Origin: a virus
Taxonomy: Duplodnaviria; Heunggongvirae; Uroviricota; Caudoviricetes
Strand: one strand, 5' to 3'
IMG/VR virus record: IMGVR_UViG_3300042430_003153
DNA: 64,000 bases
Positions 8,915 to 59,239 of this stretch are shown here, piece by piece (within the stretch, counting starts at the first letter, position 1; every line of letters starts with the position of its first letter). Made by a program: the position numbers and the translations under genes. The notes beneath the pieces were generated by a model. It had not been told where the DNA came from, did no database searches, and saw only the letters and a list, made by a program, of their open reading frames with translations.

Positions 8915-8931
8915 AACCGCAAATATACAAA

Positions 8932-12611: not shown

Positions 12612-12646
12612 GAAAAACAAAATAAAGTTTTTACTATATACGAATT

Positions 12647-21352: not shown

Positions 21353-22093
21353 TTATTTTTTAATCCATTCTTTAAATCTAATAATAGATTCTTGTAGACT
21401 TTCTACAAAATTGAAATCCTTAAGAAATTCACCAAATTCAGCGACGTATTCTTCTTTGGATTCATCATTGGCATTTTTTAAATATTGCCAATTAAATGAT
21501 AATTGATTAGGAGTTTTAAAACCAAAGAATTCTAAAACTTCTTTTTCTAATTTTACAGCTTCTGATCCATTCCAGTTATGTCCAACAGCAATTACACCAG
21601 CCTCTTTATTTTTAAGTAGATTAGATTCACCAAGTGTTGTGTGTCTATTTTCTAACCAAGTCAGTCTTTCAATTAAAGAAGTATAGATAGCATTCATCTT
21701 ACCCCATCTAATTGAACCAAAGAATATTACAATATCTGCATCAAAAATTGCATTTGCAACTTTATACATTTCATCTGATTTGTTATTTAGTGATGCCCAG
21801 CATCTGATTTGACCAGTAGGATTCTTTTCTTTATCACCAAGTTTAGCATCTTTTAAACCACAAGTGTTTCCTCTTTTGGTAGAAACGTTTCCTTCACAAG
21901 GAAATATCTTTAACTTTGCAACATTCATTACTTGACATCTATCACTTCCTAATTTCTTCATAAGTTCTTCAGCAATGATAGAAGACTTTGGTAATTCTTT
22001 ATCACCACTCCATCTATTTGAAGTTGTTAAGAAAAGAATTTTCTTTTTATTATTCTTCTTTAAATAGTTATAAAGTCTTTTTAATTCGGTCAT
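21353..22093 (-). CDS. flavodoxin-fold NAD(P)H-dependent FMN reductase-like protein
   Basis: KILFLTTSNR N-terminal beta-strand/phosphate-loop-like region and DIVIFFGSIRWG second nucleotide-binding loop. Weak assignment. Confidence 0.4.
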   Translation of the reverse strand: MTELKRLYNYLKKNNKKKILFLTTSNRWSGDKELPKSSIIAEELMKKLGSDRCQVMNVAKLKIFPCEGNVSTKRGNTCGLKDAKLGDKEKNPTGQIRCWASLNNKSDEMYKVANAIFDADIVIFFGSIRWGKMNAIYTSLIERLTWLENRHTTLGESNLLKNKEAGVIAVGHNWNGSEAVKLEKEVLEFFGFKTPNQLSFNWQYLKNANDESKEEYVAEFGEFLKDFNFVESLQESIIRFKEWIKK

Positions 22094-30724: not shown

Positions 30725-32185
30725 ATGATAATTAAGAACATTCACGAAAAATTACTCAACGGTATTCAAACAATGTTGATTGACACTAAAATCAACTTGC
30801 CTTACTACGGTGAGTTCAACCTACACGTCAGTTTCCACGAGCAAGATTCAATTGGAACTTGTGCTGTAAATGTTACCTCAAAAGGTATGAACTTTTACTA
30901 CTCTCCAAAGTTTTTGGAAAATATGTCACAAAAAGAAGTTAACTTTATTACTCTTCACGAGGACTTTCACCTTCTTTTTAACCACCCTCGTAGAACAATC
31001 ACTGGTCAGTATGACCACAAATTGTCTAACATCGCTCAAGATATGATTATCAATCACGTTATCTGGGAAGATATTCCACACGCTTTTGTAGAAATTCCAA
31101 AGTCTCCAGATGGTAAGAATATGGCTCTGTTTGTTCCAAAAGAATATACAGGGAAACTTATCTTTGAAGAGCTTTATGAGTGGTTGAAAGATGAGAAAGA
31201 AAAATGGCAAAAAGAGCAAAAACAGAACTCTGAGTGTCAGTCTTGTAAAGGATCTGGTAAAAAAGACCAATCACAGAAAGGTGACCAACCTGGTGAAGGA
31301 CAACAACCTGGTGAAGGTAAAGGTGAGAAAAAAGATGGTGAAGGAGAAGGTCAGGGAGAGTCTTGTCCAGATTGTCAGGGAACTGGTAACGAAGGAGGTA
31401 ATGACTCTAGTGGAAAACCATCTTATGGGCCTTACGGTAAAAACCCATCAAAAGATGGTGATTCATTAGACACTTGGTCTAAAGAGCAAATCTTCCAAGA
31501 TATGGAAAACGGTAACGGTGAGTATCTTGACAAACACATCGGTGATGATGTTCCTGAGGAACTGAGAGATGCGATGGTGAAAGATGTGATGGAAAGACTT
31601 GCGGCTCGTGGACTATCAGCGGGTAATGTTGAGCAAACACTTAACAAACTTCGTAAGAAACGTAAAGATTATCTTCGTGAAATCAAAAGAGCGGTTTCTA
31701 ATATGATTTTTGGAACTGTTAAAGAAAGAACTATCGTTAAACCTAATCGTAAGGGTATCTCTGGTTTGAAAGGAGCTCGTAAAGTGAAAACTAAGATTAA
31801 TGTTGGTCTTGATACTTCTGGTTCAATGGGTGGTCAGGGAACGTTTGAAAGAGTTCTCTCATATGTTTACAGAAACGATATTGAAATCAATTTCATGGAA
31901 AGTGATACTCAAGTAAACTGGGTAGAGAACATCAAAAGTAAAAGACAACTTGAAAGTATTCCGATTAAAGGATTAGGTGGAACCTGTTTACAACCAATGA
32001 TTGACTACATTGTAGAACATCACAACGATTGTAATAGTGTCTTATTGACAGATGGTTACACCGATACTCTTGATTTTTCAAAAGTAAGAGGTAGAGTTTT
32101 GATTATCTCGGTTGGTGTTAAGTGTCCAATTTCAAGAACCAATGGTAAGGTGAAACAAATTACCATTGAGGGTAATGAAAAGTAA
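30725..32185 (+). CDS. metallopeptidase-domain + VWA-domain protein (DUF2201/PF13203-PF09967-like) with Gly-rich linker containing two CxxCxGxG zinc knuckles
   Basis: LHEDFHLLFNH (HExxH), C-terminal MIDAS-like DTSGSMGG, and linker CQSCKGSG / CPDCQGTG. Confidence 0.7.
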   Translation: MIIKNIHEKLLNGIQTMLIDTKINLPYYGEFNLHVSFHEQDSIGTCAVNVTSKGMNFYYSPKFLENMSQKEVNFITLHEDFHLLFNHPRRTITGQYDHKLSNIAQDMIINHVIWEDIPHAFVEIPKSPDGKNMALFVPKEYTGKLIFEELYEWLKDEKEKWQKEQKQNSECQSCKGSGKKDQSQKGDQPGEGQQPGEGKGEKKDGEGEGQGESCPDCQGTGNEGGNDSSGKPSYGPYGKNPSKDGDSLDTWSKEQIFQDMENGNGEYLDKHIGDDVPEELRDAMVKDVMERLAARGLSAGNVEQTLNKLRKKRKDYLREIKRAVSNMIFGTVKERTIVKPNRKGISGLKGARKVKTKINVGLDTSGSMGGQGTFERVLSYVYRNDIEINFMESDTQVNWVENIKSKRQLESIPIKGLGGTCLQPMIDYIVEHHNDCNSVLLTDGYTDTLDFSKVRGRVLIISVGVKCPISRTNGKVKQITIEGNEK

Positions 32186-32190
32186 AAAAA

Positions 32191-32216
32191 GTCTCAGAGA
32201 AATCTGAGACTTTTTT
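32191..32216 (+). terminator. rho-independent terminator
   Basis: Stem GTCTCAGAGAAATCTGAGAC followed by TTTTTTATTT. Confidence 0.6.
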
Positions 32217-32249: not shown

Positions 32250-33944
32250 ATGAAATTGTTCAAATATGACGAATTTATCACTGAGTCTCAGTTACACTTC
32301 TTATTGGAAGCTAATGTGAATTTTACAAAAGAATTTATATCTATTTTGGGTAGAGTTGATTCTCCTATTTCTAAAAAACTTATTGATATTGAAGGTAGAG
32401 AGATTGATATAAATCAAAATTATATTGGTATAAATAAAGAAAAAACAGACACGATTTTCTTTAAACCAGATGATAAAGTTGGTAAAGTTGCTAAAGTAGT
32501 TAGTCAAAATGGAATTTATCCACAAATCACATATCAACTTAGTAAAATTGAAGGCAGTGGAGTTGATAAGTATGAAGAGTCTGACTTTGTAAATCCTGAA
32601 AACGATACAGTTGGTCAAGTTGTAAAAGAATATTCTTTAGAAGAAATAAGTAATTTTCTTCCTGACTATAGATCAAACTTACAGTATATGTTTATTACTG
32701 AAAATCCACTTGTTCTTTTTCAATGGATTAAAGATAGGAAAAAATATCAAATTTTAATCAATAAAAATTCCATCAACACTGGACCAGAAGCTGTTCGTAG
32801 TTCAGAGATAGCTGTTGGTAGATTTGTTAGAGCTATACTTACAAAGGCTGGTCATAAATTCACAGATGCTGAAATTGAACAATTTGTTTACAAGTATAGA
32901 GCTGAAGTAGAAAAAGAAAAGAATGTATTAGATTTAAGATTTAAAGTTGTTGAAGGAAGTGATATTAAAAAATACTATCATAAAAGTATGTATGAGAGTG
33001 AATCTGGAAGTTTAGGAAGTTCGTGTATGCGTTATGATAGATGTCAGAGCTATTTAAGTATTTATACAGATAATAGTCAATGTAAACTTTTATTATTAAT
33101 GTCAGAAACAGAACCTGATAAAATTTGTGGAAGAGCTATACTTTGGGAGATGGAACCTTATGAACTATCTACAAAAGTTATGGAAAGAATTTATAGTACT
33201 AGAACCGCAGATGAACAGTTGTTCAAAGAGTGGGCTATTAAAAATGGATACTGGTTTAAATCAAAACAAGACTTTAGTGAATATACTGAATTTGAATTTC
33301 ATAAAGAAGATGGAACTGTTGAGAAAAGACAGGGTGAGTTCTCTGTCAAATTAGACAATAAAGGTGAATATTCATATTATCCTTATATGGATTCATTTAA
33401 GTATTATGATCCATATAAAGGTGTTCTTTATAACTCATCAAACTTTGATTATGAATATGAACTAACTGATACAGAAGGTGGAAATGGTTCTTGTTCTGAG
33501 TGTGGTGGTAGTGGTAGAGTTGAGTGTGGTGATTGTGATGGTGATGGAACCAAAGAATGTTACGAATGTGATGGAAATGGTTCTGTTAGTTGTGAAGACT
33601 GTGATGGAGGGGGTAAAGAAGACTGTAATGTCTGTGATGGTGAAGGTGAAATTGAATGTTCAACCTGTGATGGAAATGGTCAAGATGATTGTGATGATTG
33701 TGGTGGTGATGGTGAAATCGATGGTGAGGAATGTGAAAGTTGTTCAGGAAGTGGAAAACAAGATTGTTCAGATTGTTCTGGTGAAGGTAAAAAAGAATGC
33801 TACAAATGTGATGGTGATGGAAACTACGAATGTAAAAACTGTGACGGTGAAGGTAGTTTAGAATGTGATGATTGTGATGGATCAGGTGAAAAAGAGTGTT
33901 ACAATTGTGATGGTAATGGTAGACACAGTTGTCCAGAATGTTAA
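32250..33944 (+). CDS. CTS-bearing protein with C-terminal array of 13 DnaJ-type CxxCxGxG zinc-knuckle repeats
   Basis: N-terminus MKLFKYDEFITES. Last ~155 aa are CxxCxGxGxxE repeats with 11-aa period, ending CPEC. Confidence 0.6.
   Translation: MKLFKYDEFITESQLHFLLEANVNFTKEFISILGRVDSPISKKLIDIEGREIDINQNYIGINKEKTDTIFFKPDDKVGKVAKVVSQNGIYPQITYQLSKIEGSGVDKYEESDFVNPENDTVGQVVKEYSLEEISNFLPDYRSNLQYMFITENPLVLFQWIKDRKKYQILINKNSINTGPEAVRSSEIAVGRFVRAILTKAGHKFTDAEIEQFVYKYRAEVEKEKNVLDLRFKVVEGSDIKKYYHKSMYESESGSLGSSCMRYDRCQSYLSIYTDNSQCKLLLLMSETEPDKICGRAILWEMEPYELSTKVMERIYSTRTADEQLFKEWAIKNGYWFKSKQDFSEYTEFEFHKEDGTVEKRQGEFSVKLDNKGEYSYYPYMDSFKYYDPYKGVLYNSSNFDYEYELTDTEGGNGSCSECGGSGRVECGDCDGDGTKECYECDGNGSVSCEDCDGGGKEDCNVCDGEGEIECSTCDGNGQDDCDDCGGDGEIDGEECESCSGSGKQDCSDCSGEGKKECYKCDGDGNYECKNCDGEGSLECDDCDGSGEKECYNCDGNGRHSCPEC
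33478..33944 (+). repeat. degenerate 33-bp tandem repeat (coding for CxxCxGxG units)
   Basis: tgtgatggtgatgg-type units recur every 33 nt. They also create a spurious alternate-frame ORF (33478..33861). Confidence 0.7.
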
Positions 33945-33946: not shown

Positions 33947-34471
33947 TCAATTCTTATAAAATGCTAAAACTAATTTTTGAGCTTTAAATATATTAGGATC
34001 TTTGGATCCTAGTTTAGCCGTATTGAGTGGAATGTTTTCTTTTATCTTATCAAGGTCTTCAAAGTACATATAACTCCAGTGATAATTAACATAGATATAA
34101 TTTGGAATTAAATCATAATTATCAAATAAATAATCTTTTAACATTTCATAAGCTTCTGATGTTTCGTCTATATTATATGTATGTAGTTCTGACGTATTAA
34201 ATTCTATTGTTAATGAATTACCAGTTCTTGATTTAGTGTATTTATCAATATCACCAGAGTTTAAACATTTTGAGCCACCTGTTTTATCATCATTGAACAA
34301 ATTCCAATCAATTACAACAGAGGATCCAACTTTGATGTCATAATCTAAACCCATTTGTTCAAAGTCAATTAATATATGTTCTAATTCTACTAAATCAATT
34401 TCAGATTCTAACAAACTCTTCTTGACACCGCGTAAGTTTTCAAATACTCTAAAATTTTTAATAAACTTCAT
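33947..34471 (-). CDS. hypothetical protein with CTS-like N-terminus
   Basis: N-terminus MKFIKNFRVFENLRG. 174 aa. Confidence 0.5.
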   Translation of the reverse strand: MKFIKNFRVFENLRGVKKSLLESEIDLVELEHILIDFEQMGLDYDIKVGSSVVIDWNLFNDDKTGGSKCLNSGDIDKYTKSRTGNSLTIEFNTSELHTYNIDETSEAYEMLKDYLFDNYDLIPNYIYVNYHWSYMYFEDLDKIKENIPLNTAKLGSKDPNIFKAQKLVLAFYKN

Positions 34472-34516: not shown

Positions 34517-35083
34517 ATGAAAGTAATGTTTTTAGATTTTGATGGTGTAATGTGTCTTTCTGAGCAGTGGGGTGGTCGTGCTAAAAAAATGCTAAAATTT
34601 AAAAAAGAATTTCCTGGTTCATCTGAAGATGATATGCCAGCTTGGATTAAGTTAGACAACTTTGATTTTAAATCAACTAAAGTTCTTAATTCAATCTTAC
34701 TTCATTATGATGTTGAAATAGTTGTTAGTTCAGATTGGAAGTTGTTCGCTACTTTAGAAGAACTTCAAGATATGTTTGATAAATACGGTGTTATCAAATC
34801 ACCAATTGATGTTACTCCTACTCTTGTTAAGTATGAGTCTAAATCTCAATTCACACAATCTGAACTTGAGCAGTGGAGAGTTAAAGAAATCAAAATGTGG
34901 TTGGATCAACATCCAGAAGTAACCAATTGGGTTGCTATTGATGATATGGATTTAGGTGAAAAGTTTGGACCAGTTTCTGGTAATTCAAATGGTGGTTTAT
35001 CTAATTTTGTTGTCACTAAACAATATATTGGAATTAAACAATCTGGAATAAAAGAAAAAATCATTAAATTTTTAAATGATTAA
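34517..35083 (+). CDS. HAD-superfamily hydrolase-like protein (possible nucleotidase/3'-phosphatase)
   Basis: N-terminal FLDFDGV motif resembles HAD motif I (DxDGT/V). Rest is weakly supportive. Confidence 0.45.
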   Translation: MKVMFLDFDGVMCLSEQWGGRAKKMLKFKKEFPGSSEDDMPAWIKLDNFDFKSTKVLNSILLHYDVEIVVSSDWKLFATLEELQDMFDKYGVIKSPIDVTPTLVKYESKSQFTQSELEQWRVKEIKMWLDQHPEVTNWVAIDDMDLGEKFGPVSGNSNGGLSNFVVTKQYIGIKQSGIKEKIIKFLND

Positions 35084-35573
35084 TGTTTTAGAAATGGATA
35101 TGAGTATTGAATACAAGCTCGCGTGGAATGTAGCCGCTCGATCTTGTTATCAAATATTCTATAGTCTTCCAGACTGTATGTTACTTTATAGACACCAGAT
35201 ATCAGAACCATATGTCTGGACTAAATTTGGTTGTAATCATCCTGATAAAATAAAATTAGAAAAACTTGATGGTAGAAATCTAATGTTATTTCATGTTGAT
35301 GTTTATAAAGAAGATACTAATAAATTTAAAGACCTAATTGATTACTGTCAATCTAATAACATTGATATGTGGATACCTTTTCCTCTAAAAAATCTTTGGA
35401 GAAATGAAGAACCACATCTCCAAATAATGAAAGATATATTGGGTGGTTATCAATGCAACACTTATGATTTAACTGGTATGAATTACAGAAGTGAAAATGA
35501 AATAAATGGTTTAATAATAGAAAAAACGAAACCTATATTCAGAGATATTAAATTGAGAAATTTATTTGATTAG
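35076..35573 (+). CDS. hypothetical protein
   Basis: 165 aa ORF. Confidence 0.45.
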   Translation: MINVLEMDMSIEYKLAWNVAARSCYQIFYSLPDCMLLYRHQISEPYVWTKFGCNHPDKIKLEKLDGRNLMLFHVDVYKEDTNKFKDLIDYCQSNNIDMWIPFPLKNLWRNEEPHLQIMKDILGGYQCNTYDLTGMNYRSENEINGLIIEKTKPIFRDIKLRNLFD

Positions 35574-35824
35574 TATTCTATTTTCTCAACATCATCCAAA
35601 TCAACATAGTATTCTCCACCATCAATTTCAACGGTAATTAAACCATCTTCATCTATATCAATCGGTGTGATTGGATCTTTAGGATCATTATCGGGATATT
35701 CTTTTACAATAGTTGAATAGATAACACCTCTTTCTTTAATACAGTTGATAATATCATCAATTGTAATTAGAGTTCCTTCTTCGTTATTTTGCTTGAAATC
35801 TTCAAATAATTTTATCCATTTCAT
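35570..35824 (-). CDS. hypothetical acidic protein with CTS-like N-terminus
   Basis: N-terminus MKWIKLFEDFKQNNEE. D/E-rich 84 aa. Confidence 0.45.
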   Translation of the reverse strand: MKWIKLFEDFKQNNEEGTLITIDDIINCIKERGVIYSTIVKEYPDNDPKDPITPIDIDEDGLITVEIDGGEYYVDLDDVEKIEY

Positions 35825-35857
35825 AATTCTATATATAAAAAATAATATATAAGAAGT

Positions 35858-36748
35858 ATGAAATATATCAAAAAATTCAACGAAGAGTTATATCCTAAGA
35901 CTTATAGAAGTGCTGGTAGTAAATTAGATTATTATAATAAGTCAAAAAATGCAGCAAAACTATTTGATTTTGCTGATGAAAAGGAGTTTGGTTTTTATAA
36001 TATGAATTGGGCAAATAATAATCCAAGCATTACAATAAAAGATTCATCTTTTACTGAACCTAGATTGACTGGTATTTATTATGCTTCAACTCCAACAAAA
36101 TACAAAGATGAATTTAAAGGTTTTAATGGAATGTCATATGGAAAAGATGCAGAAACGTTAGCAGAAGATTTAGTTGAAAGGTGGAAATTGGGTCAGGATG
36201 GACTTAATATAAGTTTTGAGTTTTCATTTAAGGCTACAAGAGAAACTGTTGAAAAAAGTGGTAGAAGCACAAATTTTTGTTGGAATGCTAATAATCCTAC
36301 TGCTAAAGAAGTAAAAGCCTTTAACTTACAAATAGACTTAAGTGAATGGTATAATGGAATTGATGATTGGGATGCTGATGCTAGATGGGATGCTGAATAC
36401 GATGGTGTAGAATTTACTCCAACTACTTTGATAGAATTTTATAATTGGTCTGCATGTTATAATGTGATGATAAAAAACCCTAATGATAGTCAATATGGTA
36501 TTTTCAGTGATAGAAAGTCAGCAATTAAATTTAAAAACTGGTTATTAACTAATCACTTAGATGATATCAAAGATGCTATTATGAATGTTTTAAGAGTTGT
36601 TGGTGGTACATCTGAAAATATTGAAAAAGCGGTTGATGCTTTTACAAAAATGAAAATTCAAGGTCTTTATGATGATGATTTACCAACTCGTGGTGGATCT
36701 GGTGATTGGATTCGTAGTAGATGGTATGAAAAAGATATAAGTATATGA
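35858..36748 (+). CDS. paralog family member 1 (CTS-like N-terminus, conserved C-terminal FxxRxxAxKFKNxL motif)
   Basis: MKYIKKFNEELYPKTYRSAGSKL ... FSDRKSAIKFKNWLL. Confidence 0.6.
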   Translation: MKYIKKFNEELYPKTYRSAGSKLDYYNKSKNAAKLFDFADEKEFGFYNMNWANNNPSITIKDSSFTEPRLTGIYYASTPTKYKDEFKGFNGMSYGKDAETLAEDLVERWKLGQDGLNISFEFSFKATRETVEKSGRSTNFCWNANNPTAKEVKAFNLQIDLSEWYNGIDDWDADARWDAEYDGVEFTPTTLIEFYNWSACYNVMIKNPNDSQYGIFSDRKSAIKFKNWLLTNHLDDIKDAIMNVLRVVGGTSENIEKAVDAFTKMKIQGLYDDDLPTRGGSGDWIRSRWYEKDISI

Positions 36749-37470
36749 AATATTTAAAGAGATTTAACGAAGAATTAAGACCACAGACTTATATGTCTGC
36801 TGCTAGAAAACTTGACAAATTAGGTCATCATGATAGAGCAAATGCCCTAAAAGACTGGGCTAAAGAAACTGAGAAAAAAGAAGAAATGATTAAGTGGCAA
36901 GACCACATTCAAGATTATGCTCAGTTTGGAACATTTAAGATGACTATAAAAAATCCAGAAACTAACGAGACTTTGACAGGTGACTTTCACTTAGATGTTA
37001 ACTTTGATGATTTGGCATTTGGTGATGAACCAGAAAGTGGTATTACTTTTTTTATAGGTTTAATTCCAACATCTGAAGATTTAATCTATCAGTATATGGA
37101 ACTTTGTCCAGATTATGATTTTGGAAACGGTTTCTTCTGGGGCAAGATATTTACTTTAGGATATGAATTAGAAGATACGGTTAAATTTACTAAATGGAAT
37201 ATGTGGGACTATGATGATGAAATGAACGGTAAAGTCAATTTTGCTGATAGAGCATCTGCTAATAAGTTTAAGAATTTACTTATTCAAATATTTAGTAACC
37301 CGCAATTAGGTTACCCATCTGGACACACGGATGCTGATGACTTATATGAAAAATTAACAAATTGTATCCTAGCTGAGAATTCATTTTCTTCTGATTATGG
37401 ATTTAGATTAGAGGATGCTGCTGAATACATAAGAACAATATCACCAAATTTACTTTCTTCTACACTATGA
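36745..37470 (+). CDS. paralog family member 2
   Basis: MKYLKRFNEELRPQTYMSAARKLDKLGH ... FADRASANKFKNLLI. Start overlaps the upstream stop. Confidence 0.6.
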   Translation: MKYLKRFNEELRPQTYMSAARKLDKLGHHDRANALKDWAKETEKKEEMIKWQDHIQDYAQFGTFKMTIKNPETNETLTGDFHLDVNFDDLAFGDEPESGITFFIGLIPTSEDLIYQYMELCPDYDFGNGFFWGKIFTLGYELEDTVKFTKWNMWDYDDEMNGKVNFADRASANKFKNLLIQIFSNPQLGYPSGHTDADDLYEKLTNCILAENSFSSDYGFRLEDAAEYIRTISPNLLSSTL

Positions 37471-38327
37471 GATATTTAAAAAGATTTAATGAAGAGTTAA
37501 AAGCATCTACTTACAAAAAAGCAGGTGAAAAATTTACTCAGATGGGTCACAAAAGAAGAGGTGCTGAATTATTAGATTATGCAACTCAAGTTGAATTAAG
37601 AGAAAAATCTGATAAACTTTTACAAGCTCAAAATGTAAATAAAGAGTTTGGTTTATTTGATATTACAGTGGCAAGAGGTTATGGGTCAAATAAGAAAGAT
37701 ATATTTTCTGGTCAATTTTATCTACAGATGTGTTTAGAATCTGATTGGTTTAAAGACCAGTTACATGATTGGTTAGGTGAAGGTATGACTTGGTCAATGG
37801 GAATTGCTATGGAATTTGCCATTATACCAGCTGATGATGAGACACTTAAAATGTTTGAAACAAGCGAAGATTCCGATATTATATATTTTAGAAATAACTC
37901 TATGTGGAGTGATGACTATAGATACTGGACTAATAGATTATGGCTTAATCTTTTTGGTAAAGGTGGGGTTCCTTCTTATACATGTGGATCTGGTGGATTT
38001 GAAGATAGAGATGGATTTACGTTTCACTTTAATTCTAGATCAGAGGCTATGAAATTTAAAAACTTGTTATCTAATACATTAGAAGGAAAATCAAATTGGG
38101 GTGCTTGGAATGAAAGAACAATTGCTGACCAATTAAAATCAACGCTTAGTTTAGATGAAGAGTTGTGGAGAAAAAAACTGATGGATCATTACTTAAATGG
38201 TAGAGAAGATGAATATGATTTAACAGATCCAGATACCTGGCCAAAAAATCCTTTTGGAGAAGATACCTATAAAGGTGCTGTTGATGCTGCTAAGAGAATG
38301 TCAGTAAATGGTTTATATAGAGATTAA
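37467..38327 (+). CDS. paralog family member 3
   Basis: MRYLKRFNEELKASTYKKAGEKFTQMGH ... FNSRSEAMKFKNLLS. Start overlaps the upstream stop. Confidence 0.6.
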   Translation: MRYLKRFNEELKASTYKKAGEKFTQMGHKRRGAELLDYATQVELREKSDKLLQAQNVNKEFGLFDITVARGYGSNKKDIFSGQFYLQMCLESDWFKDQLHDWLGEGMTWSMGIAMEFAIIPADDETLKMFETSEDSDIIYFRNNSMWSDDYRYWTNRLWLNLFGKGGVPSYTCGSGGFEDRDGFTFHFNSRSEAMKFKNLLSNTLEGKSNWGAWNERTIADQLKSTLSLDEELWRKKLMDHYLNGREDEYDLTDPDTWPKNPFGEDTYKGAVDAAKRMSVNGLYRD

Positions 38328-38330
38328 AAG

Positions 38331-39596
38331 ATGAAGTATTTAAAAAGATATGAAGAAGCTGTCGGTGTTAGATTGAAATCAGAATTGAAATCAACTGTCG
38401 AAGACTTGCTTATTGAATTAAGAGATGAAGAGTTCGATACAAAAGTGTCTGAAATAGATTATCATTCACAAAAAGAAAGAGTTAAAGTTTCTGTGAGTAG
38501 GAATAAAGAATTCACATATAGTGATATAAAAATACCAATTGAATCTATTTGGTCTTATTTAAGTGGAGAAGGATTTGAAATAGAACACTTTACTTGTGTA
38601 GAAGATGAAAACTTTGAAGAATCAGAAGATGGATTCACAATTAACCAGAAAATTAAAGGTTATCATTGGACAACAGATCCTGAAACATTTGGTGTTAAGT
38701 CTATTGAAAAAGAATACCAAAGAAGACCTCAAATTGCAAAATCAGAAGTATATAATCCGATTAATTTTGATAGAATTAATAGCTGGTTATTTGAGATTTC
38801 ATTCACTAAGGATAAAATTGAGATAGATAGAAGTAGAGGTCTTTCAACAAATGAAGATCTTGACCCAAGAACATACATAAGTGCGGCTGATAAATTAAAA
38901 AGTTTAGGTCATATTAAAAGACCTGAACAACTAAGAGCTTGGGCAGAGGTTGTTAGACAAAGAGAAAGAGATGCTAAACATAAGATGACGCTTGAACAAG
39001 CAAAAAAATTAGGTCAATTTCAACTAAGATTTGTTAAGGGAAGTGAAATAAGATTTGTAAATTGTTATATACAATTGTATTTTAATTCTGACTATTACCT
39101 AAGTGAGATGTTACCAGAATGGTTAGATGATGAGAGAAATAGTCTTTGGCCACAGTTTATGTTTGGAGTTCATCCAGTAAGTGAAGAAGATTTAGAAGTT
39201 TTAGATTGGTATGTCGGTGGTGATATTAAAGGTTATACAAACTCAGATGGTATAATTTGGTTACAAGATGTTTATATCAATCTGACAAATCAAAGATGCA
39301 AAGATCACCATGGTGTAAAATTACCTATGGTGTCTACAGGAGCTGTATCAATTGAATGTTCTGAATTTTCTGAAGTTTATTTTTCAAACAGAAGAGAAGC
39401 TATTAAGTTTAGAAATTTATTAGTTGGTCTTTTTGAAGGAGATATAGATTACATACAACCGAATGGTAAAGACTTTAAAGAAGATATAATCGAAACTTGG
39501 TGTGAACATGAAGAAAGACCAGTTGAATTGTCAGAGTTGGAAGATTTTATTGATAAACTTAGAGTGGTGAGATTAAATTCATTATATAGAGATTAA
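38331..39596 (+). CDS. paralog family member 4 (extra N-terminal domain plus internal copy of the family N-module)
   Basis: MKYLKRYEE at the N-terminus. Internal NEDLDPRTYISAADKLKSLGH. C-terminal FSNRREAIKFRNLLV. Confidence 0.6.
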   Translation: MKYLKRYEEAVGVRLKSELKSTVEDLLIELRDEEFDTKVSEIDYHSQKERVKVSVSRNKEFTYSDIKIPIESIWSYLSGEGFEIEHFTCVEDENFEESEDGFTINQKIKGYHWTTDPETFGVKSIEKEYQRRPQIAKSEVYNPINFDRINSWLFEISFTKDKIEIDRSRGLSTNEDLDPRTYISAADKLKSLGHIKRPEQLRAWAEVVRQRERDAKHKMTLEQAKKLGQFQLRFVKGSEIRFVNCYIQLYFNSDYYLSEMLPEWLDDERNSLWPQFMFGVHPVSEEDLEVLDWYVGGDIKGYTNSDGIIWLQDVYINLTNQRCKDHHGVKLPMVSTGAVSIECSEFSEVYFSNRREAIKFRNLLVGLFEGDIDYIQPNGKDFKEDIIETWCEHEERPVELSELEDFIDKLRVVRLNSLYRD

Positions 39597-39612: not shown

Positions 39613-40785
39613 ATGAAAATTAAAAAATATCAACAGTTTTTAGAATCACAAAGTTCAGATATGTGGAATATAATTCCACAATCGGTTAAAGAATTGCAAT
39701 TACTTTTCAAATCAAAAGGAAAAAAATTGTATGTCGTCGGAGGTGCCGTTAGAGACTTCCTCACTGGAGATAAACCAAAAGACTTTGACTTAGCAACTGA
39801 TGCTCTCCCAGATGAGGTATTAGAAATCATCGGAAAAGATTATAAGACTAACTTACAGGGTAAAGCATTTGGAGTTGTAGTTGTATTCACCGATGATCAA
39901 CCAGAGGGAATGGAAATTGCTACATTCAGAGAAGATGTTAGTAAAGGAAGAAACCCTGAAGTTAAATTAGGAGTTACTATTGAAGATGATGTTAAAAGAA
40001 GAGATTTGACTTATAACGCACTTTTCTATGACTTAGATAATAAAGAGATTGTTGATTTGACTGGAGGTCGTGAGCATTTGAAAAATGGTATAACTCAAAT
40101 GGTTGGTGATCCAACTGAAAGATTTGATGAAGATTCTTTAAGAATTCTTAGAGCTTTCAGATTTGCTTCTCGTTATGGACACCCTCTTCATAAAGATACT
40201 GAAGTGGCAATTGAAAAAAGAAAACAATTAGAAAATATAGAACCTGAAACCGGTGAAATGAAAAGAATTTCTCAAGAAAGAGTTTGGGAAGAAATGAAAA
40301 AAGCTTGGAAACAAGCAAGAGATTATAGAAACTATCTTAACTTCTTTACTAAGTTTGATATGTGGTCTGAAGTTTTTCCTGGTTCTGAAATCAACACTGA
40401 CTTAGTTGATTCGAAAGACTTTGTAGTTGTTATTTCTAACTTATTTAAATTGGAAAATCCAGATGGATTAGAAAAAAGATTAGTTCAAGATTATAAAATC
40501 GAATCAGAAGTAGCAACTAAAATTGTTTTCTTATTAAGATTATTAAAACTAACTCCAGAACTTGCTTTCGATATGTATAAATCAAAACTTCAATGTCATA
40601 TTGAAGATAAAACTATTTTAGAATGGTTTAGAGTGTTGGGTATAAATGATCCTATTAAGATAAAATTTGTTGAATATAAACCAACTACATCAGCTCAGGA
40701 CTTAATGGCTAATGGATTCAAAGGAAAACAATTAGGTGATGAAATCAAAAGAATTGAAATTGAAAATTTCAAAAGTATGTTATAA
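39613..40785 (+). CDS. cca: tRNA nucleotidyltransferase (CCA-adding enzyme) head domain with CTS-like N-terminal extension
   Basis: YVVGGAVRDFLTGDKPKDFDLAT and RRDLTYNALFYD (PolyA_pol head motifs). Preceded by a ~30-aa extension MKIKKYQQFLESQ. Confidence 0.8.
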   Translation: MKIKKYQQFLESQSSDMWNIIPQSVKELQLLFKSKGKKLYVVGGAVRDFLTGDKPKDFDLATDALPDEVLEIIGKDYKTNLQGKAFGVVVVFTDDQPEGMEIATFREDVSKGRNPEVKLGVTIEDDVKRRDLTYNALFYDLDNKEIVDLTGGREHLKNGITQMVGDPTERFDEDSLRILRAFRFASRYGHPLHKDTEVAIEKRKQLENIEPETGEMKRISQERVWEEMKKAWKQARDYRNYLNFFTKFDMWSEVFPGSEINTDLVDSKDFVVVISNLFKLENPDGLEKRLVQDYKIESEVATKIVFLLRLLKLTPELAFDMYKSKLQCHIEDKTILEWFRVLGINDPIKIKFVEYKPTTSAQDLMANGFKGKQLGDEIKRIEIENFKSML

Positions 40786-40816: not shown

Positions 40817-41284
40817 ATGGTTTACTATGTTTCTTATTTAAAAGACCGTGTCGGTAATAATTATCTTGGTTTAAATATACCTTTTGATATAGTAGAGCCT
40901 TATCTAAACGAACTTGAAAGTATTTTAGGTGAAGAAGAATTTAAAATCTATACAAAAAACCAAGCTGATAGAGATTCTGGTAAACATCATTTAACATTGA
41001 TTAATGTTTCTGACTATAACCGATTGATTACAGAAGTTGGAATGGACAAATTCATCAATTCATTGGAATTAATTTTTAATTATGAAGTAGATGATTTAGA
41101 AATGCCTGGAATCGGAATGGCTACTAAATCAGACAACACTTCATATTTTATAGTTTGTGAATCTAATAAATTAGATGCGATAAGAACAAGATATGATTTA
41201 CCAAAATTTGACTTTCACATAACTTTAGGTTTCAAGTGGAAAGATGTTCACGGAGTTCCGAAAAATAAAATCATAGAAAAGTAA
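40817..41284 (+). CDS. 2H phosphoesterase superfamily protein (LigT/cyclic phosphodiesterase-like)
   Basis: Two H-x-T-x motifs (HHLTLI and HITLGF) spaced ~90 aa apart. Confidence 0.6.
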   Translation: MVYYVSYLKDRVGNNYLGLNIPFDIVEPYLNELESILGEEEFKIYTKNQADRDSGKHHLTLINVSDYNRLITEVGMDKFINSLELIFNYEVDDLEMPGIGMATKSDNTSYFIVCESNKLDAIRTRYDLPKFDFHITLGFKWKDVHGVPKNKIIEK

Positions 41285-41610: not shown

Positions 41611-41616
41611 AAAAAA

Positions 41617-41645
41617 GAGTTAGACTAAATCTAACTCTTTTTTCT
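41617..41645. terminator. bidirectional terminator hairpin
   Basis: AGAGTTAGACTAAATCTAACTCT flanked by an A-run and a T-run, between convergent genes. Confidence 0.55.
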
Positions 41646-42579: not shown

Positions 42580-43845
42580 ATGAATATTAAAAATTTCTCT
42601 ATACCACAAACCGCTGGTTGCTATATCTTTAAAGATAGTAAGGGTCAAATCATTTATGTTGGTAAGTCAAAGTTTCTACCTAAACGAGTAAACAGTTACT
42701 TTCAAAAAAATCATAAAGATACCAAAACTGCTAAATTAGTAACTGAAATCAATAATGTAGATTTTATTTCAACTGAAAGTGAAAACGAAGCTCTTGTTTT
42801 AGAAGAAGATTTAATCAAGCTTTACAAACCTAAATTCAATATAAAAGGTAAAGATGATAGAACTATTCGTAGTAAATTGGTTTTAACCGGAGGTGAATGG
42901 AAAAAGTTAGAGTTATTCTACCCACACGAAGAGTTTGATGGTGAAGTTCTTTGTGAGTTTACCTCAGGTAAAGTTGCTCATGAAGTTTATGAAGCAATTT
43001 ATGATATCTTTCAACTAAGAAGTTGTAACTACTCAATAACCGAAGAAAACGTAGAAAAGGGTAAGTTTAAATCTTGTCTTGAATTCCATATGCAAAGATG
43101 TCAAGCTCCGTGTGTTGGTTTAGCAAAAAAAATTGATTACCTATTCACTGTTAAACTAATTAAAGATATTTTTCAATTTAATTTTTCAACATCACTTAAG
43201 TTTTTCAAAAGAAAAATGATATATCATTCGAGTGTTCAAGAGTATGAATTGGCACAAAAGTATAAAATAAAGATGCTAGTAATTAAAAAGATAGAAGGTC
43301 TTCTTAAACCAACTATGACTATTGGTAAACGTAATAGAGTTGAACAAATTCAAAAAGATTTAGGGTTGAAATTTTCACCTACCGTAATTGATGCTTTTGA
43401 TAACTCACATACATCAGGAACAGAAGCGGTTTGTGGGATGGTTAGATTCGCACTTTTAGAAGCTGATAAATCTGAGTGGAGAAAATTCATTATTAAATCA
43501 GGTGCTGGTGGAGATGATTATGGAAGTTTTGATGAAGTCTTAATCAGAAGATTTAAACGATTAGTCGAAGAGAAAACAAATCTACCAAATTTAGTTATAA
43601 TAGATGGTGCTCGTCCACAATTGAATGTTGCAATATCCGTTTTAAAATCATTAGATATTTATGATAAATTAGATGTGATAGCTATTTCGAAAGATGATAG
43701 GCACAGAGCAAACTTAATACACTTATCAAATGGAACTGATGTTTCAATTAAAGGTTATAATGAGTTTGCACATATACTAAACGAAGTTCATAGGTTTTCA
43801 CTTGATTTTCATAGAAAACGTATGTCTAAAAAAATGTTTAAATAA
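42580..43845 (+). CDS. uvrC: UvrC-like excinuclease (GIY-YIG + Cys-rich + RNase H-like endonuclease domain; no C-terminal HhH)
   Basis: GCYIFKDSKGQIIYVGKSKFLPKRVNSYF (GIY-YIG), CQAPCVG, and FDNSHTSGTEAVCGMVRF (UvrC endonuclease domain). 421 aa. Confidence 0.8.
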   Translation: MNIKNFSIPQTAGCYIFKDSKGQIIYVGKSKFLPKRVNSYFQKNHKDTKTAKLVTEINNVDFISTESENEALVLEEDLIKLYKPKFNIKGKDDRTIRSKLVLTGGEWKKLELFYPHEEFDGEVLCEFTSGKVAHEVYEAIYDIFQLRSCNYSITEENVEKGKFKSCLEFHMQRCQAPCVGLAKKIDYLFTVKLIKDIFQFNFSTSLKFFKRKMIYHSSVQEYELAQKYKIKMLVIKKIEGLLKPTMTIGKRNRVEQIQKDLGLKFSPTVIDAFDNSHTSGTEAVCGMVRFALLEADKSEWRKFIIKSGAGGDDYGSFDEVLIRRFKRLVEEKTNLPNLVIIDGARPQLNVAISVLKSLDIYDKLDVIAISKDDRHRANLIHLSNGTDVSIKGYNEFAHILNEVHRFSLDFHRKRMSKKMFK

Positions 43846-44404: not shown

Positions 44405-45670
44405 ATGGATATTATTACTAAATTTTCTAAATTCTTAAATGAATTAAATGAAGCCAGAACAGTAGACTTACCAATTTTAGATGTTGTAATCGATGATGAT
44501 GGTTTAATCTATAATGGAGAACAAGCTGATTTAGTTAAAGGTAGAGTTCAAAGAGAACCTGGAAGAATCGTTACTAGAATTTTAGGAACTGATAATAAAG
44601 AATATCCTGCAGGAATTGACAAAAATGGAAATGTAGTTGCTTTACAAAAAGACACAGAAAACAGAGCACTTAACTCAGCTGGTCAACCAATACCGGTTCC
44701 ACAATTTATACAAAAGAAATATAAAATTGGTCACCAATTCTATTACGAAGATCCAGAGTTTGATTATTACTCTGTGATTCCAATTACACCAACTGGGTGG
44801 ATTAACGTAAAGATTGATATGGAAATTGTGAAAAGAGTTAAAAGATATGCTAAAACTCTTGGAACAAATAACAGAGGACACGAATCTTTTATTTCTAAGT
44901 TAATGGAATTTGAAAAACTATCAACTCAAAGTCGTTCACCACAATATATTTCAAGACTTAAAAGAAGCACTATTCAAAAAGAAATGTCTGCAATTCTTTT
45001 ACTTCACCATATAAATGAAATTAAAGACTTCTTTAATCCATCACAGGGTGGTTTTTTATTTGAATCATTTGTTGCTGGTTTGATTCCAGACGCAAGAGTA
45101 AAAGAAGATAACTCACCAGTTGATATAAAATCAGCAAGTGGTAGATATCAATTAAAATTAGTCGATTTTAAAACAGAATATATTGAAGTAACAAAAGATA
45201 ATGACCCAACCAAATCACCTTGGTTAGAACATTATATGATGGCTTTAAAATATGTCGATAGAATAGATATGTATATTGTTGATGGTAGAATTTTAGAAGA
45301 TAGATACAATAATGATACACTTGAAAATTTAATAACAAAAGGTGGTGCTAAATCTGGACCGAAATTTGCGGTAAAAAGATTAATAGCACTTAATGATCCT
45401 ACTTTAGTTAGAAAGTTCACAATCGAACTAACCGATATTGATGGTAGAATCAAAAACTTAGGTGATAGTCTAAAACAAAGTTTGAAAGAGTTATATGATG
45501 AGTTAAGTAGATTTCAATATAATGTTGAAACAATCATTACTGGAGTTAACGAAAAAGGAAAAGTTGTCAGAGACCAATACGAATTTGATGTTTATCATTT
45601 ATCAGCTGAAAAGAATATCATAAATTTATCACATCACCTAAAAAGGCTAGTATCAGATATAAACAAATAA
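44405..45670 (+). CDS. hypothetical protein with CTS-like N-terminus
   Basis: N-terminus MDIITKFSKFLNELNEA. 421 aa. Confidence 0.5.
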   Translation: MDIITKFSKFLNELNEARTVDLPILDVVIDDDGLIYNGEQADLVKGRVQREPGRIVTRILGTDNKEYPAGIDKNGNVVALQKDTENRALNSAGQPIPVPQFIQKKYKIGHQFYYEDPEFDYYSVIPITPTGWINVKIDMEIVKRVKRYAKTLGTNNRGHESFISKLMEFEKLSTQSRSPQYISRLKRSTIQKEMSAILLLHHINEIKDFFNPSQGGFLFESFVAGLIPDARVKEDNSPVDIKSASGRYQLKLVDFKTEYIEVTKDNDPTKSPWLEHYMMALKYVDRIDMYIVDGRILEDRYNNDTLENLITKGGAKSGPKFAVKRLIALNDPTLVRKFTIELTDIDGRIKNLGDSLKQSLKELYDELSRFQYNVETIITGVNEKGKVVRDQYEFDVYHLSAEKNIINLSHHLKRLVSDINK

Positions 45671-45672: not shown

Positions 45673-46185
45673 TTACCAATTATTAGAATAAGTATCAGTG
45701 TCTTCTTTAAAAAGAGATACTAAAGACCAAGCAATAATTGATACTATCGCTCCTATTATAAATAACAAACCACTACTTACTGCTAATCCTAAAAATGCAG
45801 CTACTGGTGCTCCAAAGCAAGCGATTAGTGTAATTGAAGCTCCTGAAATACGAGCTATTTTTTGTAACATTGTTTCAGTTTCTTCATCTTCAACTGATTC
45901 ATTAACAATAGGTTGAATTTGTAATGGATTTCCAACAAATGATTTAACCCAATTCCAAAGTTTCATTAATTCAGATTGATTTTGTTGTTTAAGTTTCTGT
46001 GTAGTTTCTTCCATTAATTCAGGATTTTCTTTAACCCAGTTCATTCCATATTCAGCTCCTTCTTTAACTTCACCTGTTAATTTAGAAATCCAACCTGATA
46101 ATTTTTCTTTAATCCAATTAAAAGCTTGTAAAAACCAATTTTCATTAACAACATTGAATTTTTCATAAGTCTTAATATATCTCAT
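45673..46185 (-). CDS. membrane protein with CTS-like N-terminus and C-terminal TM helices
   Basis: N-terminus MRYIKTYEKFNVVNEN. C-terminal hydrophobic helices (ASITLIACFGAPVAAFLGLAVSSGLLFIIGAIVSIIAW). Confidence 0.5.
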   Translation of the reverse strand: MRYIKTYEKFNVVNENWFLQAFNWIKEKLSGWISKLTGEVKEGAEYGMNWVKENPELMEETTQKLKQQNQSELMKLWNWVKSFVGNPLQIQPIVNESVEDEETETMLQKIARISGASITLIACFGAPVAAFLGLAVSSGLLFIIGAIVSIIAWSLVSLFKEDTDTYSNNW

Positions 46186-47832: not shown

Positions 47833-48792
47833 ATGGCAAAGTATAGAATATTATCACTTGATGGTGGTGGATTGAGAGGAGTCATCCCGGTATTAATCTT
47901 GAAAAAAATTGAAGAGATGACTGGGAAAAAAATCTGGGAATTATTCGATTGTATTGTTGGGACTTCTACAGGGGGAATTATTGCAGCTGGTGTAACCGTA
48001 ACTAAAAATGGCAAAACGCCACATTTAGATTTAGAAACACTTTATAAATTATATACTGAAGAAGGCTCTGTTATATTTCCACAGCCTAAAAATAAATTTC
48101 AAAAAATATTCAAAGATATTAATTCAGTTTTCAATCCTAAATATTCACCAGATGGTTTAGATAAACTCTTAACTCAATATTTTGGTGATCTAACACTTAA
48201 AAATACACTCAAGCCTATTATAGTAACTTCTTATGACTTAAAGTCAAATCAAATTATTATGTTCAAAACCAGGAATGCTCAATGGCATGACGAAAGATTC
48301 AACGTTAAATTGAAAGATGTTTGTAGAGCAACATCAGCAGCTCCGACATATTTACCTTCATATGAAATGAAGTTTGATGGTAAAGATAGAGTCTTAGTCG
48401 ATGGTGGTGTTTACATCAATAACCCAGTTTTAGCCGCTGTATCTGATGTAATTAAAAATTGTGATATCAAATTGTCTGATATCGAATGTCTTTCTATAGG
48501 AACAGGCATACATAGTGAGAGTCTTGGTGTAAAAACAGAAGGTTGGGGATTAATAAATTGGGTTAAACCTATCACAACAATCATGATGCAAGCATCATCA
48601 ATGTCTGTCGACTATCAAAGTGACCAATTGTTAAAAAAACATTTGAGACTTCAAATAAAAATTGAAGACCAATCAAAAACTGATATGGCTGATTCAAGAC
48701 CAGAAACCACTCAATATTTAGTAGATAAAGTTAAAAAAGAAATATTTGATGATGTTGAATTGATGAAAAAGTTACAAAGATTCTTTAAGTAA
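47833..48792 (+). CDS. patatin-like phospholipase
   Basis: LDGGGLRG (oxyanion hole), GTSTGG (GxSxG nucleophile) and VDGGVYINNP (catalytic DGG). Confidence 0.8.
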   Translation: MAKYRILSLDGGGLRGVIPVLILKKIEEMTGKKIWELFDCIVGTSTGGIIAAGVTVTKNGKTPHLDLETLYKLYTEEGSVIFPQPKNKFQKIFKDINSVFNPKYSPDGLDKLLTQYFGDLTLKNTLKPIIVTSYDLKSNQIIMFKTRNAQWHDERFNVKLKDVCRATSAAPTYLPSYEMKFDGKDRVLVDGGVYINNPVLAAVSDVIKNCDIKLSDIECLSIGTGIHSESLGVKTEGWGLINWVKPITTIMMQASSMSVDYQSDQLLKKHLRLQIKIEDQSKTDMADSRPETTQYLVDKVKKEIFDDVELMKKLQRFFK

Positions 48793-49347: not shown

Positions 49348-49638
49348 TTAAGACATTGATGGATAAATACCCTCTAATGCTATATAAGTTTCTATAAAAA
49401 CTTTACCATTGTGTACCTCACCAACTCTTAGTTGGATAACATTTCCGTTTTCATCTTTTGGTCTTAAATCCGGTAAGCCAAATGTTTCAACACCATCACC
49501 ACCATAACTAGTTCCCAATAAATTGTATAACACATCATTCTCAGCGATAGATAATAACTGTCCGTGACAGTAAGCCCAACCAGCGGGGCAAAAATTGTAA
49601 GGAAATTGAGCTAACTCCCCAATAAATACTTCATCCAT
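49348..49638 (-). CDS. phage tail-collar-domain protein (PF07484-like)
   Basis: FPYNFCPAGWAYCHGQLLSI...LYNLLGTSYGGDGVETFGLPDLR matches the tail-collar/MdpB consensus. 96 aa. Confidence 0.65.
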   Translation of the reverse strand: MDEVFIGELAQFPYNFCPAGWAYCHGQLLSIAENDVLYNLLGTSYGGDGVETFGLPDLRPKDENGNVIQLRVGEVHNGKVFIETYIALEGIYPSMS

Positions 49639-49654: not shown

Positions 49655-49945
49655 TTAGCTTCTTGAAGGATAAATTCCGTTTAATGCAATATAGTAATCC
49701 ATATAAGGTTTACCTTCATAAATATCACCAACTTGAAGTTGAATAACATTTCCGTTTTCATCTTTTGGTCTTAAATCAGGTAAGGCAAATGTGGTTCTAC
49801 CATCACCACCGAAAGTAATTCCTAATAGAGAAAACAAAGCAGTGTTTTGTTGTATAGACATGATTTGACCGTGACACGATGCCCAGTTTTTTGGTGCGAA
49901 ATTATAAGGATACTGACATATTTCTCCTACGAATGGTTCATACAT
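49655..49945 (-). CDS. phage tail-collar-domain protein, tandem paralog
   Basis: ~60% identical to 49348..49638. YPYNFAPKNWASCHGQ...GGDGRTTFALPDLR. Confidence 0.65.
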   Translation of the reverse strand: MYEPFVGEICQYPYNFAPKNWASCHGQIMSIQQNTALFSLLGITFGGDGRTTFALPDLRPKDENGNVIQLQVGDIYEGKPYMDYYIALNGIYPSRS

Positions 49946-56938: not shown

Positions 56939-57022
56939 GGTCGAGTGGTGGAATAGGTAGACACGCCGGACTTAAAATCCTGTGGGCATTTGCCCGTGCG
57001 GGTTCGACTCCCGCCTCGACTA
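56939..57022 (+). tRNA. tRNA-Leu(UAA): tRNA-Leu (anticodon UAA), type II with long variable arm
   Basis: Hand-folded: 7-bp acceptor (G1.U wobble), 3-bp D stem, anticodon loop CUUAAAA, variable stem-loop GGGC-AUUU-GCCC, T-arm GCGGG-UUCGACU-CCCGC. No encoded CCA. Confidence 0.75.
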
Positions 57023-57058
57023 CAAATAGGTAATCTTTGGAAAGCCTTATAAACAAAG

Positions 57059-57132
57059 GGTCCGCTAGCTCAGCTGGATAGAGCAACTGCCTTCTAAGCA
57101 GTAGGTCTCAGGTTCGAATCCTGAGCGGATCA
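57059..57132 (+). tRNA. tRNA-Arg(UCU): tRNA-Arg (anticodon UCU)
   Basis: Hand-folded cloverleaf: acceptor GGUCCGC/GCGGAUC, D stem GCUC/GAGC, anticodon stem ACUGC/GCAGU with loop CUUCUAA, T-arm UCAGG-UUCGAAU-CCUGA. Confidence 0.8.
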
Positions 57133-57140
57133 CAAAAAAA

Positions 57141-58750: not shown

Positions 58751-59239
58751 ATGTCAAAATTAAACGTAGAAGAACTTGTTAGTGGTCTTTTAGAAGCCGG
58801 AATGGTTGCTCAAAGGATATCTGAAAGACAGCATATCAGTAACATAGTTAACTACTTTAATGCTGACGGAACACCTAAAACTCAAACATTTAAGATAGGT
58901 GAAAAAGATATGCAAGTTCCGTTATTTATTTTAGCCGACCACTCATCAATTGGATTAGATGAATTAGATATTGAATTTGAAGCAAGACTTGTTTTTGGTG
59001 ATAGTAAAGCATCAGATCTTAAAAGAAGTTTGTTAGGTATATTCAAAAATAAAGACGGTAAAGTCAGTAAAGATGACCATCACAATATTAAATCGATTGA
59101 AGTTGATTCTGGTAAATCTGAAGATGGTTCTGGTATGGCAAAAATTAAAGTCAAATTTAAATCAGATACAAAACCTGAAATGATATCAAGATTAATTGAT
59201 TCATATATTCAAAGATTAGAAGACACATCAACAAATTAA
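58751..59239 (+). CDS. hypothetical protein, probably highly expressed
   Basis: 162 aa. Same codon style as 58054..58656. Confidence 0.55.
   Translation: MSKLNVEELVSGLLEAGMVAQRISERQHISNIVNYFNADGTPKTQTFKIGEKDMQVPLFILADHSSIGLDELDIEFEARLVFGDSKASDLKRSLLGIFKNKDGKVSKDDHHNIKSIEVDSGKSEDGSGMAKIKVKFKSDTKPEMISRLIDSYIQRLEDTSTN

Follow-up and report, generated by a model that had tools for sequence, protein, structure and literature searches.

The locus described here raises the question of why a tailed phage (Caudoviricetes) should carry, one after another on the same strand, four genes whose products share their two ends and have so little in common between them. The genes, called g1 to g4, lie in a stretch of 64,000 nucleotides (nt) from the IMG/VR virus record IMGVR_UViG_3300042430_003153, the whole of which is referred to as the window. 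The four are ancient copies of one protein family, and their best-kept part is a short N-terminal leader, which is selected as a peptide and also opens many unrelated proteins of the phage. The best single mechanism for such an arrangement, put forward tentatively and by analogy with other phages, is that g1-g4 are capsid-targeted, diversifying effectors which would be injected into the host. The four genes are as follows.

35858-36748, + strand: g1, 296 amino acids (aa), of allele type a and the most divergent of the family
36745-37470, + strand: g2, 241 aa, the conserved member of the four
37467-38327, + strand: g3, 286 aa, allele type a
38331-39596, + strand: g4, 421 aa, composed of leader, extra alpha/beta domain, linker and family unit

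Four paralogs of one family

A first interpretation, made from the letters of the DNA (the sequence-only reading), had proposed a tandem, same-strand paralog family with a shared N-module, a shared C-terminal motif and strongly diverged middle regions, all of which is borne out by direct comparison of the proteins. BLASTP yields E-values of 1e-14 for g2 and g3, 3e-16 for g3 and g4 and 2e-10 for g2 and g4, with residues 174-418 of g4 matching all of g2 or g3. The BLASTP matches of g1 to its paralogs are confined to its first 43 aa (~1e-9) and the C-terminal motif, and a family hidden Markov model, which covers g1 end to end (residues 1-273, E 2e-20), links it to the others. Alignment of the four proteins leaves invariant columns both in the N-terminal part (N8, E9, L11, T15, Y16, A19 and K22) and in the C-terminal part (F216, R219, A222, K224, F225 and N227), the latter belonging to the motif F-x-x-R-x-x-A-x-K-F-[KR]-N-[LW]-L. 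Mean pairwise identity is 77% in the leader (positions 1-11), 37% in the N-module (12-43), 19% in the middle, 44% in the helix of the C-terminal motif and 23% in the tail. The start/stop overlaps described along with these features exist as ATGA at g1/g2 and g2/g3, yet not at g3/g4, where the two genes are 3 nt apart.

Family proteins follow a common plan, in which a leader of 9-11 residues comes first, then a helical hairpin of basic character, then the acidic alpha/beta core and last a conserved R-x-x-A-x-K-F-K-N-L-L helix; the isoelectric point (pI) of the hairpin, or N-module, is 9-10 versus 4.1-4.8 for the core. The AlphaFold2 model of g2 (predicted local distance difference test score, pLDDT, 83.9; predicted template modelling score 0.79) consists of a disordered leader (residues 1-8), a helical hairpin (13-25 and 29-61), a beta-sheet core and C-terminal helices. 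Homologues of g2 number 332 (241-255 aa), and those of g4 129. Two more specific interpretations of the hairpin were rejected: a HEPN-like R-x6-H motif in the N-module occurs in g2 only, R21 not being kept in g1, g3 and g4, and a SAP/HeH-like reading was dropped without support from profile or fold searches.

The fourth gene has an additional part. In g4 the leader (residues 1-9) is followed by an alpha/beta domain (residues ~17-161, nt 38379-38813), a disordered linker (164-175) and the family unit (174-421, nt 38850-39593). An internal second copy of the N-module had been claimed for this protein, but it contains a single one, at residues 174-206, preceded by an unrelated domain, and its N-terminus shares with the other paralogs just the 7-residue leader MKYLKRY. 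Since the extra domain is unrelated to the family and is absent from the g4-position genes of more distant genomes (259 aa in contig L012 and 262 aa in contig L015), g4 is a fusion or insertion and not an internal duplication.

A profile search retrieved 639 family clusters at 50% identity, all of them on phage or metagenome contigs. The family is without annotation and without a recognised fold, and its plan of a leader on tandem paralogs has precedents in T4 and in phiKZ-like phages. Nothing informative matched g1-g4 in Pfam, PHROGs, NCBIfam or PADLOC (in Pfam at E <= 1, only two sub-threshold DUF matches for g2), PDB sequence-profile searches with family alignments A3 and A4 gave no match, and Foldseek against BFVD gave none with a usable TM-score. 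No relative emerged when 185,579 genomes of bacteria and archaea were scanned with a single narrow motif pattern, a search which is thus not exhaustive. Searching the literature for the leader sequence brought up no paper, and a preprint on huge-phage folds makes no mention of the family. In one family protein, P0294 (259 aa), a NADAR-like fragment (E 4e-6, below the Pfam cut-off) stands in place of leader and hairpin and adjoins the family core. The protein may have arisen by recombination or through chimeric assembly, and a link of the family to NADAR was dropped, as it rests on this one probably chimeric protein and its sub-threshold fragment.

When g2 was compared by tblastn with 50,697 phage records, it matched only LR745206.1 (634 kb) and LR756502.1 (642 kb), two uncultured huge phages which are also the only matches of the window in that set. 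They are among the largest genomes of the Mahaphage clade, for which Bacteroidetes hosts have been predicted (PMC7162821). The closer relatives are metagenomic contigs of 175-520 kb, some of which encode proteins of the type IX secretion system kind (SprB/CHU_C and Por_Secre_tail). Such proteins fit a host among the Bacteroidota, which is the probable host of the window phage; the G+C content of the window is ~29%.

The leader and its bearers

The first 11 residues of the family are nearly fixed, with the consensus M-K-[YH]-[LI]-K-[KR]-[FY]-N-E-E-L derived from the 145 Met-starting representatives among 147 retrieved. The codons beneath this consensus are mixed: Y3 is encoded by TAT 18 times and TAC 17 times, N8 by AAT 21 times and AAC 19 times, and E10 by GAA 18 times and GAG 14 times, while the same Tyr, Asn and Glu codons elsewhere in the family genes stand at ~80:20. 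Because synonymous codons vary in this manner, the leader is selected as a peptide and not as RNA, and its conservation at the RNA level or as a recombination linker is rejected. In predicted models the leader is disordered, with pLDDT below 50.

The family leader also opens unrelated small proteins, and many further open reading frames (ORFs) of the window, on both strands, start with a less strict form of it, K-[YF]-x-x-F-[ILV]-x-E. The pattern K.?[YF]..F appears within the first 16 residues in 10 of the 88 window ORFs, versus 0.9% of internal 16-residue segments, an enrichment of ~12-fold at N-termini, and with the family-type leader counted as well, ~15% of the window ORFs are tagged. These bearers are mostly ORFans, with leaders of the form K-[YF]-x-x-F-[ILV]-x-E or MK[YFW][IL]Kx[FY]; they include 6927-8057, 11064-11756, 33947-34471, 35570-35824 and 45673-46185 on the minus strand and 14018-14734, 32250-33944, 39613-40785 and 44405-45670 on the plus strand. 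Among the other leaders of the window are MKLFKYDEFITE, MNIKSYSQFINE and MKIKKYQQFLE. A family-like leader is borne as well by the CCA-adding enzyme encoded after g4, where it is kept in three divergent genomes, and a leader resembling the capsid targeting sequence (CTS) of phage T4 is present in the distant relatives L012, L018 and L019.

The first of these, a 476-kb relative, carries at 8767-13354 three family copies interspersed with unrelated small genes of 115-310 aa, which mostly start M[KR][YH]L[KE]x[FY] (shown for five). The first helix/strand pattern of the small genes (..L.EL.D..F.V.I) recalls the extra N-terminal domain of g4 and the window proteins p84 and p174; no significant sequence similarity was found.

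Alleles, neighbours and transcription of the array

The order p84 (minus strand), g1, g2, g3, g4 recurs unchanged in 11 or more related contigs, each of the four genes having its own 1:1 orthologue series, and upstream of the array the relatives carry genes for DUF2201, a Cys-rich 564-aa protein and HAD_SAK_2. Copy number drops with distance, to three in LR745206.1 and L012, two in LR756502.1 and one in L018 and L019. The array is stable and does not turn over rapidly by birth and death of genes, given this fixed order, the 1:1 orthologues, the strong conservation of g2 and the age of the array. A locus holds 1-4 copies; g2 is conserved, and g1, g3 and g4 are variable.

This variability takes the form of deep allele types. 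Within the close clade, g2 is 77-93% identical. Type a of g1 (293-296 aa) is 81-87% identical in L010, L023 and L024, while type b (269-272 aa) is 31-33% identical and occurs in genomes which are 85-93% identical at g2. For g3, type a (286 aa) is 79-88% identical in L007, L008 and L021, and type b (264-265 aa) is 34-36% identical in L003, L013, L023 and L010. The allele type of g4 always co-varies with that of g3 (79-84% versus 52-56% identity). All four combinations of g1 with g3-g4 are seen: the window has a/a, while L007, L008 and L021 have b/a, L003 and L013 b/b, and L010, L023 and L024 a/b. Between phages that are nearly identical, these alleles reassort freely.

Within allele types, omega (the ratio of nonsynonymous to synonymous rates) is 0.28-0.35 for g1, 0.20-0.31 for g3 and 0.26-0.31 for g4, ~3x that of the flanking genes, with 0.08-0.18 for g2, 0.03-0.13 for the flanking DUF2201, HAD and p84 genes and up to 0.33 for the CCA gene in its mosaic pairs. 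Accordingly, g1, g3 and g4 are relaxed or diversified and held as balanced cassettes, and g2 is constrained. Along the locus, nucleotide identity changes abruptly at the borders of the array genes, with further steps in p165 and in the CCA gene. The p165 gene (35076-35573) is a divergent cassette between flanks of ~90% identity. The CCA gene is 53-65% identical to that of L013 at the nucleotide level up to ~40300 and 94-99% identical thereafter, and a recombination breakpoint is therefore placed inside it near 40300.

The elements around the array which bear on its transcription and surroundings are the following.

35830-35837: mirrored box TATATATA, 5 nt upstream of the divergent p84 gene
35843-35851, + strand: promoter-like box TAATATATA, a putative promoter 6 nt upstream of the ATG of g1
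39613-40785, + strand: CCA-adding enzyme (PolyA_pol head domain; Pfam PF01743, E 1.9e-30), with the family-like leader MKIKKYQQFLES
40817-41284, + strand: 2H-SAK phosphoesterase (RNA repair; Pfam PF22547, E 1e-18)
41611-41643, both strands: bidirectional intrinsic-terminator-like hairpin with a 14-bp stem, which closes the + strand unit

The TAATATATA box is kept upstream of g1 in 9 loci though the coding sequence of g1 is hypervariable, and in the window it is found 5-9 nt upstream of most leader-bearing unit heads. Sites of TAATATATA or TATATATA accompany the ATGs at 8057(-), 11756(-), 14018, 19788, 21353-22093(-), 32250, 34471(-), 35824(-), 44405 and 57234. The odds ratio for the association of box and leader is ~12 in the window; over all loci, which do not represent independent samples, it is ~3.3. 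With the box so close to the start codon, the 5' ends of transcripts would be very short or leaderless if it acts as a promoter. The CCA gene begins 16 nt past g4. No terminator-like site was found on the plus strand between g1 and 41611, the only other strong plus-strand terminator in the 30-43 kb region being at 32185-32216; because nothing of the kind intervenes, g1-g4 are probably co-transcribed with the CCA-adding enzyme by read-through. A variant box, GATATATAG, precedes the 2H-SAK gene, which may have its own promoter.

In the related contigs the CCA gene follows the array, directly or past 1-3 inserted genes, in L001-L003, L007, L008, L012-L015 and L021-L023, and the 2H-SAK gene comes next after it. 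The CCA gene is missing, with the array kept, from L010/L024 and L017, and the single-copy loci L018/L019 have no CCA neighbour. An AbiEii-like nucleotidyltransferase lies between g4 and the next gene in L003 (10870-11844) and in L024 (9835-10794), where it replaces the CCA gene. RNA-repair and tRNA genes are scattered over the window, with an RlaP nucleotidyltransferase at 15180-16298 and a HAD_SAK_2 phosphatase at 34517-35083 in addition to the CCA and 2H-SAK genes, and tRNA-Leu(TAA) and tRNA-Arg(TCT) within 56939-57133.

Other parts of the window have features of their own. The leader-bearing ORF at 32250-33944 (+), of 564 aa, has ~16 CxxCxGxG repeats (zinc finger of the DnaJ/BSD2 type) at its C-terminus (33480-33944), and its N-terminal part contains a conserved GSSCM..C motif common to a 467-aa protein of LR756502.1. 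Further tandem paralog pairs are formed by 96-aa phage tail-collar-domain proteins, at 49348-49638(-) and 49655-49945(-), and by DUF2589 proteins, at 58054-58656(+) and 58751-59239(+). Type II topoisomerase subunits, a UvrC-like GIY-YIG nuclease and a patatin-like phospholipase are encoded at 9171-11015(-), 12647-13990(+), 42580-43845(+) and 47833-48792(+), and by virtue of these genes the window represents a non-structural part of the genome.

Packaged cargo as a possible reading, and its rivals

Under the reading which is tentatively preferred, the leader would be a sorting tag common to many unrelated phage proteins, and its destination would most likely be the assembling prohead, by analogy with the CTS of T4 and the propeptides of SPN3US gp53/gp54. 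The four proteins would then be packed into the virion and enter the host when it is infected, the g1 and g3-g4 alleles facing variable host or competitor targets and g2 keeping a constant role. This reading is favoured because the tag is common to unrelated proteins, and capsid targeting is, to our knowledge, the only established phage precedent for a peptide-level N-terminal tag of that kind; because ejection paralogs of giant phages show an identical N-terminus and a divergent body; and because g1 and g3-g4 behave like balanced, reassorting alleles, which suggests targets that vary in the host or in competitors.

The T4 CTS, MKTYQEFIAE, is cleaved after Glu. Internal proteins (IPs) II and III of T4 start with this peptide and IPI with MKTFKEFTST, whereas the g1-g4 family starts MKYLKRFNEE. 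The two groups are alike in that a Lys/aromatic-rich, Glu-ending N-terminal peptide is best kept and the bodies are divergent. Several window proteins show Y-x-x-F-I-x-E exactly, while the leader of g1-g4 is MKYLKRFNE, with the pattern M-K-x-x-K-x-F-x-E. Among the otherwise diverse IPs of T4 nothing but the CTS is conserved, and their variable parts have been linked to host defences (PMC3012670); the 10 aa of the CTS are cleaved off by gp21 (PMC10229621). The CTS-like leader of the sequence-only reading thus stands as regards resemblance to T4 and its place as the most conserved part of the proteins; it is not specific to the family, however, being found on ~15% of the window ORFs, the CCA enzyme included. 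A second precedent comes from the SPN3US ejection-protein paralogs gp53 and gp54, which have an identical N-terminal 15-mer with A/S-x-E sites and belong to paralog family A, present in 2-7 copies among related phages (PMC5694885). Family A of phiKZ and SPN3US and the g1-g4 family both combine a shared N-terminal peptide with divergent bodies and a variable copy number (2-7 versus 1-4). The members of family A are gp93/94/95/162/163 of phiKZ and gp53/gp54 of SPN3US, corresponding to Pfam PF12699. The two phages differ from the window phage in lineage, in host phylum and in the placing of A/S-x-E within long propeptides, and for g1-g4 a place in the head is a prediction.

Several observations weigh against packaging. 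The T4 IPs are basic proteins of 95-193 aa (pI 8.9-9.5), whereas g1-g4 are acidic (pI 4.6-5.3) and have 241-421 aa. No homology to T4 IPs or PF12699 was detected in Pfam, in PHROG or by tblastn of g2 against the 50,697 phage records, and g1-g4 have no PF12699 match at E <= 1. Cleavage follows L/I-x-E in T4 and S/A/G-x-E in phiKZ, and the F-N-E of the family is not an exact fit to either. Unlike the T4 IPs, g1-g4 form a fixed four-gene operon adjoining the CCA enzyme, and their packaging and cleavage are predictions; the context of this operon is RNA repair and tRNA maturation, not head genes or morphogenesis. The tagged ORFs, which include the CCA-adding enzyme and possibly an HD phosphohydrolase, compare with only a handful in T4, and we know of no capsid-targeted set which their share of ~15% would not far exceed. 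The diversification attributed to the array holds in so far as g1, g3 and g4 are more variable than their neighbours and have deep, reassorting alleles, but omega is below 1 for every gene, no gene-wide positive selection being detected by this measure, and the mosaicism extends to the neighbouring p165 and CCA genes and is partly a regional property. A broader form of the packaging reading is genome-wide sorting, in which a tag of 9-12 residues (MK[YH]LKx[FY]NE or K-[YF]-x-x-F-[ILV]-x-E), carried by ~1 ORF in 7 and often driven by TAATATATA, would send cargo including the CCA enzyme and g1-g4 to the prohead for co-injection. It is judged unlikely; if true, it would be a mechanism of the T4 CTS kind enlarged by an order of magnitude.

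The neighbourhood itself suggests another role, possible though doubtful, in which g1-g4 would be cytoplasmic accessory factors of a tRNA/RNA-repair module coupled with the CCA enzyme; the basic hairpin and an R/K helix would bind tRNA or RNA, or block host anticodon nucleases, to which the alleles would be matched. Genes of the 'Swiss Army Knife' (SAK) neighbourhoods (HAD_SAK_2, 2H-SAK and CCA/RlaP nucleotidyltransferases) flank the array and are probably co-transcribed with it, HAD_SAK_2 lying before the array, 2H-SAK after it and RlaP in another part of the window. In jumbo phages, the role of an RNA-repair phosphatase has been described for the SAK-type HAD (PMC7824862). The unit g1-g4-CCA(-2H-SAK) contains no internal plus-strand terminator, and in most relatives the array has the CCA gene behind it, adjacent or with short inserts between, over a range of g2 identity from 93% to 38%. 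The N-module is basic (pI 9-10), residues K22, R169 and K174 are conserved, and L003 and L024 have the AbiEii-like nucleotidyltransferase inserted at the same spot. This synteny may, however, reflect merely a conserved genome backbone, and it fails where the CCA gene is missing despite the array (L010/L024 and L017) or is no neighbour (L018/L019). The family is not a described SAK component and is tied to the SAK genes by position only, as g1-g4 match none of the SAK enzymatic domains (HAD_SAK, 2H-SAK, kinase, ligase and nucleotidyltransferase), which are confined to the neighbours. Pfam, PDB-profile, Foldseek and NCBIfam/PADLOC-type searches found no RNA-binding or nuclease-inhibitor fold or motif in them, and a role in RNA repair would leave the genome-wide leader unexplained.

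A copy number of 3, 2 or 1 in more distant genomes, and the free reassortment of g1 against the g3/g4 alleles, which is hard to square with tight co-evolved interfaces, make it rather improbable that g1-g4 act as subunits of a single structural or regulatory heteromeric complex and not as four independent effectors. In such a complex the gene order, the ATGA overlaps and the co-variation of g3 with g4 would reflect stoichiometric co-assembly, and it is consistent with the conservation of gene order and number in at least 11 contigs, with the overlapping stop and start codons, with the invariable pairing of g3 and g4 allele types and with a hairpin whose long helix (29-61), present in all members, could serve oligomerisation. 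It would be compatible with either packaging or RNA repair. The leader, for its part, could be a by-product of translation initiation, arising from AT-rich first codons on near-leaderless mRNAs transcribed from the TAATATATA box, or could stem from the birth of genes through recombination at a conserved promoter-plus-start module, and the box just 5-9 nt from the ATG, the AT-rich codons of all leader residues (K, Y, F, I, L, N and E) and the association of box and leader agree with such an origin. Still, it is highly improbable. Synonymous variation in the leader equals or exceeds that elsewhere and C-/G-ending codons are over-represented, and because of these codon data an origin at the RNA or translation level is disfavoured. 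Moreover, g2, g3, g4 and the CCA gene, which are box-less and internal to the operon, keep the leader, and its pattern is positional (aromatics at i and i+3/4, then Glu) and not merely compositional.

Should the tag be a targeting signal, as the packaging reading holds, the packaged or co-localised proteome of uncultured huge phages could be listed from their sequences, and the set of injected enzymes would be unexpectedly large and would include tRNA repair. Whatever the tag does, the array presents a clean natural case of balanced, reassorting cassettes (g1 a/b x g3-g4 a/b) around a conserved core gene, and this reassortment makes g1, g3 and g4 likely contact points with variable host or competitor factors. 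As the family comprises 639 unannotated clusters, one structure solved by experiment, or one phenotype, would be enough to annotate hundreds of proteins.

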